Positions 11,575 to 62,778 of a stretch of 64,000 nucleotides of DNA are shown in pieces. A model generated the notes under the pieces. It was not told the DNA's origin, did not search any database, and saw only the letters and a list, made by a program, of their open reading frames with translations. Source of the DNA: Eledone cirrhosa. Lineage: Eukaryota. The stretch spans positions 46,376,001 to 46,440,000 of the forward strand of contig OZ024749.1 of assembly GCA_964016885.1 (NCBI GenBank), read 5' to 3'. Both the position numbers and the translations under genes were made by a program. Within the stretch, counting starts at the first letter, position 1; each line of letters opens with the position of its first letter.

Positions 11575-11740
11575 TAACGAAGGAACTGTGGTAAGGAATC
11601 GCGTGGACCACAACGCCCCAGAGTACTCAATACTTTGGGTAGTAGAGTGGGTAATAGGAAAATGTTCAAGACCCCGACGGCAGAGCTCAAGCCGTTGAAC
11701 CGGCTTGAGCTCTGCCGTCGAGATCTTGAACATCTTCCTA
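11575..11740 (-). mobile_element. Family A hairpin+tail element
   Basis: taacgaagg...tail, then arms around gaccccgacggcagagctcaagccg; flanked by TA repeats. Confidence 0.8.
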
Positions 11741-11866
11741 TATATATATATATATATATATATATATGACACATACGCACACACACACACACACAAATAT
11801 ATATATATATATATATATATATATATATATATATATATATATATATATATATATATGGAGACTTAC

Positions 11867-12050
11867 CCGGAAACCTTTCTTTGAACGGATATCTAAGACT
11901 CTGTTGTACTGTATCTCTATTTCATCACTTTTCACTAAGAATCTCTGTGGAAACGGACCCTGGTAATCATTATTTGTGGAATTATAATCTAAAGACTTCA
12001 ATCCTTTAATTAGCCTGTCTGCAATGTCTTCTTTGTACCTTGGGTGAACA
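11867..12050 (-). CDS. SIAE: SIAE coding exon 8 (contains catalytic His, VHP)
   Basis: ttAG acceptor; (S)[13 protein letters not shown]...YQGPFP...[16 protein letters not shown] donor; phase 2 in, phase 0 out. Confidence 0.93.
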
Positions 12051-12370
12051 CTAAAGTTTAAAAAATAAGAAAATATGTTTTGGTACACGTGGTGAGTATA
12101 AGACAAACATACACTTATGTGCTCTGTCACACATATACATCCCCTAATATATATATATATATATATATATATATATATATATATATATATATATATATAT
12201 ATATATATATATATATATATATATATATACAAACATATATATATATATATATATACATATATATATATATATGCGTGTGTATGTGTGTGTGTGTGTGTGT
12301 TTGTGTATACATATATATATATATATATATATATATATATATATATATATATATATATATATATATATTA

Positions 12371-12551
12371 TAGGAAAAGAGTCATGACCCCGACGGCTGA
12401 GATCCGAAGTGTTCGGATCTAGCTTTCGAAACGGCCAGAGCTCAGCCGTCGGGGTCCTGACTCTTTTCCTATTACCCACTCTACTACCACAAGTATCGAG
12501 TACTCTGGTGCGTAATGGTCCACCTGGTATCTTACCACACTTTCTTTGTTA
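12371..12551 (+). mobile_element. Family A hairpin+tail element
   Basis: taggaaaagagtca..gaccccgacggctgag / ctcagccgtcggggtcctgactcttttccta + tail; follows (TA)n. Confidence 0.8.
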
Positions 12552-13333
12552 TATTTATAAGTAAAATCCCGACCGCTGTGCCAACCGATTTTATGGTTTC
12601 AGACAACTTGTGTTCCGATTGTTTGCACAATGGAAGATCATGCATGTGAGAATAAGGTGGAAGTAGGTTAACATTCTACAGACAAGTTTAACCTTAACCT
12701 AATTGTTATTAAGTATCAGAGTATAGTGTGTGATATGGAAGAATACTTTTCTCCCATGAGTATTTACGTGAACATAAAGACAAATAGACATATATTTGAA
12801 AATTTATATCCTTACTTTATCAATACTGGAATGATGGAAGTCAAAATTGACCTTTGAATGATTTGAATTCAGTATGTAAATATTCATGACTAAATACTGC
12901 AAACAACTTTTCTTTTAACAATCTAATGGTTCTGCCAAACTAATGCCCAGAAAAGTCTCTAGAGTTGCTGATTATCTTAAGACTAAATCTCATCAATTTT
13001 GGAAGCTATTTTTAAAGCTACGTATAGAATATACAATAGGACTATGGTAGTCGTATGTTATTGTAAAACACCAATGAATCTATCAGACACTACCTATTAG
13101 CAGTACAGTAACTACAAGTATGTTTTCATAAAGATAATGGATTCAGCCACCTGTCTCAAGATATATATCAGTCGAAAATCTAATTAGAAGAAAAGACATT
13201 GACAGATCAATAAAAATGTAACAAAAATAAAAAGCTATGTAAAATAAAACAAGAACTATTAGCCAATCAAGCAAGCTATCAATCGAAGAATAATCAAACA
13301 TAACACTTTTATTAGAAACCCCCAATTACTTAC

Positions 13334-13476
13334 GATGAATATGGAGAAGTGGGGTCTGGTAAATCCATAGCAACTGCCATAAAAACATTCGGGAGTTTGT
13401 GGTTTGGTACATAACCTATATTAGCTGTTTGTGCCCAACGGAGGGCAGCGAATCCGGAATTATGGTAAGGAGCAAG
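13334..13476 (-). CDS. SIAE: SIAE coding exon 7
   Basis: gcAG acceptor; LAPYHNSGFAALRWAQTANIGYVPNHKLPNVFMAVAMDLPDPTSPYS; GTAAGT donor. Confidence 0.95.
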
Positions 13477-13586
13477 CTGCAAAAATAAAATAGTTAAATA
13501 GACAGCAGGAGCAATTAAGTTTTGTGCTGGCAAACACAACATTCTTCTTGTTCTGCTAACTATGCATCTATCTACGTATGTAAGTA

Positions 13587-13678
13587 TCTAGCAAGACGAA
13601 TTCGAACCATCGACTTAAGGATGACAACTTAATATAACATACTACAGTCCGCCGCTCTACCAACTGAGCTATCGCGGG
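13587..13678 (-). pseudogene. Intron-containing tRNA-Tyr(GTA), probably a pseudogene
   Basis: CCCGCGATAGCTCAGTTGGTAGAGCGGCGGACTGTAG + 19-nt intron (13641-13623) + ATCCTTAAGTCGATGGTTCGAATTCGTCTTGCTAGA. A and B boxes are recognisable, but the acceptor and anticodon stems have mismatches. Confidence 0.85.
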
Positions 13679-59413: not shown

Positions 59414-60043
59414 AATATATATATATATATATATATATATATATATATATATATATATATATATATATATATGTGTGTAATATATATATATGTATATATA
59501 TATATATATATATATATATATATATATATATATATATATATATACACACACACACATATACATATATATATATATATAAATATATATATATATATATATA
59601 CACACACACACATATATATATATATATATATATAGACACACACACACATACACACACACACACACACATATATATATATATATACACACACACACACACA
59701 CACACACACACATATATATATATATATATAAAAGGGTGATAAATTATGTTGCAAACTCTTAACTCACAACACAAAGACACAAAGTCTGAAATAATACAGC
59801 AACTCATCCCCGCCATCTCTTATTCAATCACCCCAGTCTATACATTAAAAAAAGACCCTTAGACTGGCACTTTATTTTATTTACACAAGAAGGACGAATG
59901 AAACAGTTAGCTTCGGCTGTATTGGAACTCAGAGACCAAATACCACAAGGCAGCGAATACTCCGCTCTATCGTGTCTGCCCATTCGAAAAATGTAATATT
60001 TCTTTATTGTTTACCGTTACCACAGATCCATCTTTGCTGTATG

Positions 60044-60079
60044 TAACCCTAACCCTAACCCTAACCCTAACCCTAACCC
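60044..60079 (-). repeat. Interstitial telomeric repeat (TTAGGG)6
   Basis: Six perfect taaccc units. Confidence 0.9.
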
Positions 60080-60154
60080 TTATTAGTTTTTTGCAAATCT
60101 CTCTTACATCACATACTAATCATTTACATATTACAGGAAACATTATTTAAAGTA

Positions 60155-61155
60155 GAGGCGGTGGATTGGCAGTATCGGTAGAGGGTCGGACGCCATGCTT
60201 TCCAGCATAGTTATGTCCCTTTACGGTCTGAGTTCAAATCCCGCCGAGGTTAACTTTGCCTTTCATCCTTAAGGGGTCGATAAAATAAAGTACCAATAAT
60301 GTACTAGGTTATTGATGGCCTTGTGCCAAAAGTAGAAACAATTATTTAAAGTAGAGACGGGGTTGGATTGACAGTTTCAGTAGAGCCTCATACACCATGC
60401 TTTGCAGCTTAGTGTTATGGCAATTTACGTTCTGAGTTCACATCGAGGATAGCTTTGCCTTTGATTCTGACGGGGTCGATGAAATAAAGCACCAGTAATG
60501 CACTGAGGTCGATTTAATCGACTTTCTCCTCCACTCAAATTTCTGTCCTTGTGCCTATAGTAGAATTCATTAATTTAAGTAGTTTCAGGATGGTGAATTG
60601 GCAGAATTAGTAGAGCGTCGAATAACATGATTTGCGGCTCTCTGGTGAATACTTTGGTTTTACCTTCGTTGGTACAGATATACTAACAAGTGCAGCAACG
60701 CATTATTACAGCGACAAAGTGTTAAGGCTCTTTCCTTTCTGAGTTCAAATGCCGCCTGCCATCCTTACGTACCAGTAATGCACTGGTTAAAAAATGCCTT
60801 ATGAATGATATTGGTTAGACAGAAACAGTTTGGAGTCCCATCTGATGGACGGGACCAACGTCAAAACATCGTGCAGAATCTTCTCCAGGATTATGTAAAT
60901 GTTACATATTACCATAGAACACTCAGCCAGTTACTATAAGTAGATTGGCAGTATCGGTAGAGCGTCGGACAACATACTTTGTGGCATGGAGTTACGGCCC
61001 TTTACTTTCTGAAGTCAAATACCGCCGAAGTTAGATTTGCCTTTCACCTTTAAGAGGTTCATAAAATAAAGCACCAGTAATGCACTGGGATCGATTTAAT
61101 TGACATTCCCTATCAAATAATTCTTGGCCTTGTGCATAAATCAGGAGACATTATT
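60155..61155 (+). mobile_element. Cluster of four co-oriented major-family SINEs of different ages
   Basis: Copies at about 60155-60343 (TSD attatttaaagtagag), 60357-60570, 60590-60787 (decayed) and 60943-61155. Confidence 0.85.
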
Positions 61156-61827
61156 AGCTTATTTCATTTTATAAACTGGCTGTTTAGTTGATCGACAAAC
61201 TGGAATGCTCTTCATTGAAATCGACGTAGGTCCATTCCCATTTCTTTCAATTACATATATAGACAGAACGAAATAAGCACACAGTTTGTTGCAATGTAAG
61301 GCTGAATGGCGTATAAGACAGACATTCGTTGCCGGATATCTGTCAGTATCTCCGTTGTTATTTTCCAATATCGGATTGATTTTCTGTTGTATATATATAT
61401 ATATATATATATATATATATATATATATATATATATATAATCTAAAAATATATATATTTATAAATATAATTTATACTTAAGTCTAAGCGTTAGTTCTTTA
61501 GTAGAGGAGTTTGTGATAAACATTAAATAATAAGAATAATAATACTAATATATATATATATATATATATATATATATATACATTTGTGTGTGTGTGTGTA
61601 TAGATTTTTTGAGTTTTCATATTATACATATATAATGTATACATCAGCACACACACAAACATGTGTGTTTGTGTGCGTGTGTGTATGGCAGTATAACATT
61701 TTGTATTTATAAATACAACCTATAAGCTGATAATTGTTTCAACTCTTATTATACACACACCCACACATAAATAAATAAATAAATAAATATATATATATAT
61801 ATATATATATATATATATATATATATA

Positions 61828-61998
61828 TAGGAAAATGTATGACCCCGACGGCAGAGCTCAAGCCGTTTCGACGGCTATTTCTGGACGCTAGTATTGAATA
61901 CTCTGGTGCGGTCGGGTCCATCTGGTTCCTTACTACAACTCCTTTGTTATATATATATATATATATATATATAACGAAGGAGTTGTGGTAAGGAACCA
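61828..61998 (+). mobile_element. Deleted family A element plus inverted tail fragment
   Basis: Arm and tail sequence at 61828-61949; mirrored tail piece at 61972-61998. Confidence 0.7.
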
Positions 61999-62656
61999 TA
62001 TAAATATATATATAATATATATATATATATATATATTTATTTATTTATTTATTTATTTATGTGTGGGTGTGTGTATAATAAGAGTTAAAACAATTATCAG
62101 CTTATAGGTTGTATTTATAAATACAAAATGTTATACTGCCAAACACACACACAAACACACACACACCTGTTTGTCTCTATTACTCTCTTTATTTTCTTTT
62201 TCTTTTGTATTTTACCTGGACTACCTTTTATCTTCTGTATCTATCCTTGGTGATCCTGTCTTTACTTTGGTATTCCCGAAGAAGGGCTAAATCCCAACAC
62301 GTCGAACTTTCTTTCCTCTTTTCATTGTAAAGCGTGAAACTAATACTTTTGTACCTCTGTTGGTTGGTTGTTTCCTTGAACTACAAACAAACACATATAT
62401 ATGTCTGTAAACCGTATTTCCCGGCGCTAAAGACGCACCCTAATTTTGAGAACCCAAAATTTGAAAAAAATAATAAACAACCTTCGGCCTAAAGGACGCA
62501 TGGTAGAATTTTGAGAGTTATTTTAGGAAGAAAAAAAAAAAAAAAAAATATATATATATGTGTATATATATATATATATATATATATATATATATATATA
62601 TATATATATATATATATATATATATATATATATATATATATGTATATAGGGAGAGA

Positions 62657-62778
62657 GGAAAAGAGTTAGGACCCCGACGGCTGAGCTCCGGCCGTTTCGA
62701 CAGCTATATCTGAACTAAATATCGAGCAATCTGGTGTGCTATGGTCCACCTTGTTCCTTACCACACTTCCTTCGTTAT
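62657..62778 (+). mobile_element. Internally deleted family A element
   Basis: ggaaaagagttaggaccccgacggctgagctccggccgtttcgac...ccacacttccttcgtta. Confidence 0.75.

Follow-up and report, generated by a model that had tools for sequence, protein, structure and literature searches.

Arm ends of stub insertions of a Penelope-like element in Eledone cirrhosa map to two fixed bases and probably reflect twin run-off of target-primed cDNAs

Insertions with head-to-head arms and a tail on one side only are known from endonuclease-positive (EN+) Penelope-like elements (PLEs). Passages of Craig et al. 2021 (PMC8557442) and of the account of Adineta Pen2a (PMC3846280) describe such copies with tails of 30-40 bp and with TATA/Initiator-like sequence in the pseudo-long terminal repeat (pseudo-LTR), and ascribe the inverted copies to self-priming or endonuclease resolution. 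Here we describe a PLE family of Eledone cirrhosa, ten pieces of which lie in a stretch of 64,000 nucleotides (contig OZ024749.1, positions 46,376,001 to 46,440,000, forward strand; hereafter the window). Its short insertions, or stubs, differ from the published cases in that arm geometry favours two primed cDNAs and in that the inner arm ends map to two fixed bases. They probably arise when two target-primed cDNAs run off the 5' end of the element RNA and are trimmed and joined, the two RNA 5' ends themselves being deduced from where the arms stop.

For the PAc protein (Poseidon, Anolis), passages of Frangieh et al. 2024 (PMC11167929) report nicking and extension of both strands in vitro from two internal sites that bound the tail. 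The present family resembles PAc in its AT-rich target, two internal starts of reverse transcription and a ribozyme overlapping the start of the reading frame. It is unlike PAc, for which the same passages give RNA-seq without cleaved ends and cleavage that is dispensable in vitro, in having a class of genomic stubs that end at the predicted cut. An internal promoter has been shown for Penelope of D. virilis (passages of PMC2377424). In vivo cleavage of PLE hammerheads is stated to be unshown in passages of Cervera and de la Pena 2014 (PMC4209133), and passages of PMC8557442, PMC4209133 and PMC11167929 call both this point and the origin of PLE inverted repeats open. Layout and clade are already published, with self-priming as the printed cause in the passages of PMC3846280. 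A search that lacked most subscription journals and covered the retrozyme preprint 10.64898/2026.07.22.740005 in passages found no paper in which arm ends were mapped to a start site or a cut, or in which the run-off reading was given.

Judged by motifs read by eye and by layout, the parent is a Hydra-clade EN+ Penelope-like retrotransposon. Its protein, P0001, has a YRDD motif, the elements LRWRT, SDKTG, CNCPDRSIC, CNLC..EE and CKH, which match the Hydra-clade set in passages of PMC8557442, and after the linker a VIY...YIG motif, as in the published Hydra rows, that marks a candidate C-terminal GIY-YIG endonuclease. Likeness to Hydra-clade elements described there, such as Hydra-1_Obim, covers RW[K/R], DKT, the CxCx5C linker, CxxC and CxH around a conserved E and N, reverse transcriptase (RT) segments that follow the Hydra rows by eye, (TA)n targets and a hammerhead. 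The Neptune clade was rejected, since it has DKG and a CX2-5CxxC linker and the element has DKT and CxCx5C. The family differs from Hydra-1_Obim-type elements in its length of ~3.5 kb (published Hydra elements are mostly <3 kb in the passages of PMC8557442), 1.1-kb 3' region, 80-nt tail, U3-A8 ribozyme core, long stems II and III, and tens of thousands of copies. A Pfam scan of P0001 returned no family and no endonuclease match; one relative matches RVT_1 below the cut-off. Relatives number 639 at E<=1e-20 among 7,995 scored. The predicted model (predicted local distance difference test, pLDDT, 88) has telomerase reverse transcriptases (TERTs) as its top three Foldseek matches (E about 5e-8), with defence-associated (DRT) and retron RTs ranking just behind.

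A 22-mer at the boundary between pseudo-LTR and tail matches the 3.0-Gb genome exactly at 36,447 places, and long copies extend upstream into coding sequence. A search of the genome at the protein level gave a list of 150 places, 20 of which were examined (12 for long frames, 8 for top identity). In the 12 long-frame copies the frames span 614-859 codons, and the copy ends share 92-100% identity with the window copy at 51113; for full-length copy L215 the identity is 100%. L215 starts with (TA)n and an inverted arm; next come a pseudo-LTR and a tail that continues into an open frame of 788 codons, then the 3' region, a second pseudo-LTR and tail, and (TA)n again. Partial-tandem pseudo-LTRs with an inverted truncated copy and a one-sided tail are found in L214, L215, L216, L219 and L222. 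Both arms carry open frames in L217, L219 and L222, which are head-to-head insertions of kilobase size, and in L219 a 3.3-kb tail-less arm stands opposite a 2.3-kb tail arm.

All three subfamilies, A1, A2 and A3, carry a predicted type I hammerhead with three helices, GUC, G10.1-C11.1 and a UUGANAA core with U3-A8. In an alignment of 12 distinct, hand-chosen rows 88.9% of cells are paired, three stem II pairs are changed on both sides, and the covariation score was reached by 1 of 500 shuffles. The folding z-score is -0.07, and none of the best 150 of 182 Rfam matches in the window is a hammerhead. The structure shares type I topology, a long helix II, G10.1-C11.1, the U3-A8 variant and a palindromic loop 3 with the PLE hammerheads in the passages of PMC4209133, and differs from them in a helix III of about 5 bp, a length at which folding as a monomer could be feasible. 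In A1 copies a donor-like CAG/GT and an acceptor-like pyrimidine-CAG precede the ribozyme by about 300 nt (L029 ~1380-1430; window ~20675-20735), a possible short retained intron.

Positions are numbered from the G of the hammerhead GAAA (0), with the predicted cut between +22 and +23; f and r denote the inner ends of the tail-bearing and the tail-less arm. Junctions were read in 99 of the first 100 listed 22-mer matches, representing 98 distinct copies that were not selected for junction and over-represent young copies and the first 20 Mb of one chromosome. Tail-less arms were sought within 330 nt, which misses long ones, and were found in 76 of the 98. Other genome-wide patterns were counted by eye in the first 100 (or first 50) matches listed. 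The two outer ends are fixed at +39/+41 and about +120, each followed in the element by a TAT to which a (TA)n primer may pair. In 71 of 98 copies the tail ends in TA at +118..+122, and 62 of 76 left flanks are TA repeats, which would mask any target-site duplication.

The inner ends are concentrated as well. When forward and tail-less arms are pooled, 110 of 174 ends fall 12-23 nt upstream of GAAA, with a peak at -18, the A of T[T/C]AGT. Of the 98 forward arms, 55 stop at -23..-12, 10 extend past -30 and 23 stop at 0 or beyond; among tail-less arms 55 of 76 end at -23..-12. The original prediction, drawn from the letters of the window, had placed the fold-back point in or next to stem II, and the clustering is confirmed: a stretch of 12 nt in the 3' strand of a covarying stem II holds 110 of the 166 ends within -100..+39 (binomial p about 1e-75), and the hairpins are products of reverse transcription. 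The per-base stop rate is 0.004-0.013 downstream of -12, 0.10 at -17..-12, 0.37 at -18, 0.12 at -23..-19, 0.026 at -35..-24 and 0.002 beyond -35. For A2 arms reaching -18 (first 100 of 15,713), 63 end at -18..-23, 37 run through and none stop at -24..-30; for A1 (first 100 of 1,277), stops at -18 number about 50 and those at -24..-29 number 5-6, and about 41 arms continue. A2 arms ending at -17 number 3,789 genome-wide. Single arms joined directly to (TA)n likewise end at -18.

We suggest that cDNA synthesis is primed from each end of a cut (TA)n target, at one of two fixed RNA sites (+39 and +120), and that both cDNAs would run off the 5' end of the element RNA before being trimmed and joined head to head. 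The main 5' end would be a capped transcription start at -18, in the T[T/C]AGT inside stem II, which we take to be Initiator-like; RNA starting there would lack the 5' half of the hammerhead and begin with the 3' half. A minor 5' end at +23 would be left by self-cleavage of read-through RNA, and long arms may be copied from uncut read-through RNA. In L1 elements, twin priming, in which two target ends prime on the RNA, yields inversions; there the arms copy different parts of the RNA, whereas here both copy the same short stretch.

The main rival, which we hold to be unlikely, is that two separately primed cDNAs on a longer RNA both stall, either at the upper stem II fold or at a loop-loop contact at T[T/C]AGT. 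Such stalling would account for the symmetry of the arms just as well; the cluster of ends overlaps the upper stem II helix predicted in A2, and T[T/C]AGT is conserved within the ribozyme although the surrounding stem II loop varies between subfamilies. However, RT crosses the well-supported basal helix (-1..-11) at a low stop rate (0.013), the edge is identical in A1 and A2 despite their differing loops, 37-41% of the arms that reach -18 go on with almost no later stops, and an untemplated C is specific to -18. Since the stop lies beyond the conserved basal helix, at the same motif despite loop differences and with an added C, run-off is favoured over a stall.

An RT that reaches a capped template end adds C; at a plain end it adds A. 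The first untemplated cDNA base was read in the first 50 of 2,300 near-symmetric hairpins: it is C in 21 of the 27 arms that stop at -18, versus 3 of the 13 that stop at -17 (p=0.002; p=0.03 when restricted to spacers not assignable to the mate), and some spacers, of the TCGA type, have an added C on both arms. Overall, untemplated bases are mostly C after -18, which is cap-like, and A after the cut at +23. Among the first 100 matches listed, ten loci have a G separating target-like sequence from A(-18), and five have a C. The spacer TAAATTTA, with both arms reaching -21/-22, occurs in 9 of the first 50 A2 hairpins and fits a second Initiator-like sequence, TCATTT, at -22. Runs of 13-14 T or A at junctions beside TTT at -19..-21 (L090, L182 and further A2 arms) suggest slippage at the template end.

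Three other accounts of the -18 edge were rejected. Retrovirus-like strong-stop transfer, with -18 to +22 as the repeat, should leave a cap-derived G in long arms; these almost never have it, with 6 cases of G, 6 of A and no insertions genome-wide. A splice acceptor at TTAG is contradicted by arms that often contain the AG, so that it is not an exon start. A branch-point stop would use the CTAAT-like site near -22 in A3, which is absent in A1 despite the same edge.

The second fixed base is the predicted cut. Among the shortest hairpins of the youngest subfamily (first 50 of 166, found with a pattern that permitted longer arms), 30 have both arms at +23, 13 of them blunt (CCCC/GGGG) and 17 with 1-5 untemplated, mostly A/T bases. 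The other 20 comprise 7 in which a single arm ends at +23 and untemplated bases are present, 6 ambiguous cases and 7 that pass +22. Direct joins of +23 to TA-type repeats were seen in about 11 of the first 100 of 165 matches, a count that has no shifted control.

The inverted arm is longer than the forward arm in 35 of the 76 hairpins, shorter in 33 and equal in 8; joins include 20 that are blunt, 17 that share one base and 27 with insertions. The original prediction was that reverse transcription stalls or self-primes at stem II and copies back. On such an account a single cDNA (or antisense RNA) gives both arms. Self-priming is also the published proposal for palindromic inverted junctions (Arkhipova et al. 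2013; passages of PMC3846280). We consider copy-back very improbable for this family. Its geometry (r>f, an inverted arm shorter than the forward arm, with a loop) is compatible with 27 of 76 hairpins, but only 6 combine a loop of at least 3 with a microhomology of at least 2 bases, and 35 have the longer inverted arm under any placement. The 27 untemplated insertions, the 20 blunt joins and the C added on both arms of TCGA-type spacers also speak against it, and the fixed outer end at +39 followed by TAT is left unexplained. For about half of the copies, copy-back is largely refuted. The ribozyme had been thought disabled by the inversion; its 5' half was more likely missing from the template.

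Variants mirrored in both arms, which suit copy-back, had been taken as copy-specific and as a sign of one template. They proved to be subfamily markers, ggaaccagta being found in 31, ggaacgagta in 17, ggaaaagagtca in 6 and ggaaaatgttca in 4 of 98 other copies. Against subfamily references, 23 mirrored variants were seen once and 18 recur, and single-arm variants number 124 (60 copies). Arms of one copy differ by 3.8%, versus 3.1% between subfamily mates (46 copies, p=0.93), so the expected greater closeness within copies is missing; both values are far below the 14.7% against all copies. Homogenisation of the arms was rejected on the same grounds. The mirrored variants show that both arms share a source lineage; a single molecule is not implied.

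Run-off of two cDNAs was further weighed against two histories of the finished insertion. Long head-to-head insertions might have been shortened later by central deletion of unstable palindromes: kilobase inverted copies exist, and most of one arm is gone in the window copies 61828 and 62657. Deletion, however, does not explain why arms should stop sharply at a single base or at the predicted cut, the youngest subfamily shows the same pattern with arms mostly free of mutations, and single arms joined straight to (TA)n end at -18 too, all of which makes this history quite implausible. Hardly any credence is left for a ready-made hairpin-plus-tail unit that was amplified in the manner of a miniature inverted-repeat transposable element and passed on its breakpoint. 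Certain junctions do recur, but they vary from copy to copy, identical ones recur across subfamilies, and stubs match the ends of full-length copies at 99-100%.

A number of observations weigh against the run-off reading and its two RNA 5' ends. As 74 of the 110 clustered ends lie at -17..-12, trimming must be assumed, and the 18 at -23..-19 need either further starts (A2 has its second motif at -22) or short read-through. The candidate Initiator rests on a five-base motif, whose bases could instead be a ribozyme tertiary contact or a splice-acceptor-like YAG, and TATA-like sequence 29-31 nt upstream of -18 is present in A2 and A3 and absent in A1. Untemplated C and G are present at other junctions too, the 13 blunt CCCC/GGGG cases could be CG-microhomology joins, and r and f are weakly correlated (rho 0.33). 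One and two RNA molecules as template cannot be told apart. On the supporting side, read depth in public contigs, which cannot show RNA starts, rises about 15-fold across -18, a step partly due to older subfamilies dropping below 90% likeness.

The pieces in the window are 3' ends of the element, pseudo-LTR plus 80-nt tail, with the tail on one side only. All the copies originally listed exist, and the tail-less arm, if present, ends TTCC/TA, 17-19 nt beyond the GTC triplet, much as had been read. The tail has the expected length of about 80 nt and lacks the expected constancy, its ending ccttcgtta being found in 6 of 10 pieces; it ends ctttg in 12371, 20489 and 61828, and that of 16908 is broken. 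An inversion close to GAAA holds for six copies, which end <=21 nt from it (11575, 12371, 16908, 46157, 51113, and the tail-less arms of 61828 and 62657 taken together), with 16798, which turns at about +45/+26, and the nearly absent forward arms of 61828 and 62657 as exceptions.

In the young A2 stub at 51113..51312 (minus strand) both arms stop at -18, and a single untemplated base is present at 51253. A second A2 stub (46157..46350, plus) has an inverted arm to -17 and a shorter forward arm from -14, followed by the tail, and the very short A2 stub at 16798..16891 (minus) joins a tail arm reaching about +45 to a tail-less arm of ~+26..+39. The A3 stub at 11575..11738 (minus) comprises a tail arm at 11575-11696 (to about +2) and a tail-less arm at 11690-11738; that at 61828..61949 (plus) has a tail-less arm that reaches -17 and there meets the tail at +62. 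Three A1 stubs lie on the plus strand: 12371..12552, with a tail-less arm that has an internal skip and ends near -18 (by eye), a forward arm from -17 and a tail; the old stub 16908..17075, with an inverted arm to -14, an insertion, a forward arm from about -20 and a partly deleted tail; and 62657..62777, with a tail-less arm that reaches about -21 and there meets the tail at +59. The long A1 copy at 20489..21090 (plus) has an inverted arm at 20491-20595 (to -64) and a forward arm at 20596-21087 (from -338). As predicted, it is the only copy to retain the 5' half of the ribozyme core, and it has the whole hammerhead with a mutated GAAA; because its arms reach beyond -18, its template must have extended upstream of that base. 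The piece at 61972..61998 (minus) is a tail-end fragment (+95..+120). Family pieces were found in 11 of 40 control stretches of 10 kb picked regardless of the family, and the window is thus richer than average.

The pieces at 61828 and 61972 are flanked by 137 bp of host DNA in inverted duplicate (95%; 61654-61788 and 62038-62173). Such flank duplication is not enriched around the family (3/76, versus 11/488 control TA runs). Near-perfect palindromes of other repeat families at 55930-56016, 5786-5868 and 54770-54878 are possibly stubs of other Penelope-like families. A tRNA-like match at 13587-13678 (minus), above the Rfam gathering score (35 bits), may be the head of a tRNA-derived short interspersed element. 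The middle of the open frame at 25552-26103 (minus) resembles a sialate O-acetylesterase-type exon, with the motif GDVWMCSGQSNM; Pfam gave no match. Repeat finders, a PDB sequence search and a bacterial promoter scan gave nothing informative on the family.

If the run-off reading is true, hairpin centres record where the RNA starts and where the ribozyme cuts in living cells. With slightly better than even chances, the stubs would then be a germ-line record at base resolution of independent priming, of a promoter inside the hammerhead and of a capped half-ribozyme RNA unable to cut its own start, and the +23 class would reflect in vivo cleavage of read-through RNA and the use of cut RNA as template. 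The family yields two exact predictions, namely that RNA starts with a cap at -18 and that a 5'-OH terminus lies at +23. Its geometry is not fitted by self-priming, the cause proposed in print, and it concerns elements that are the closest mobile relatives of telomerase.

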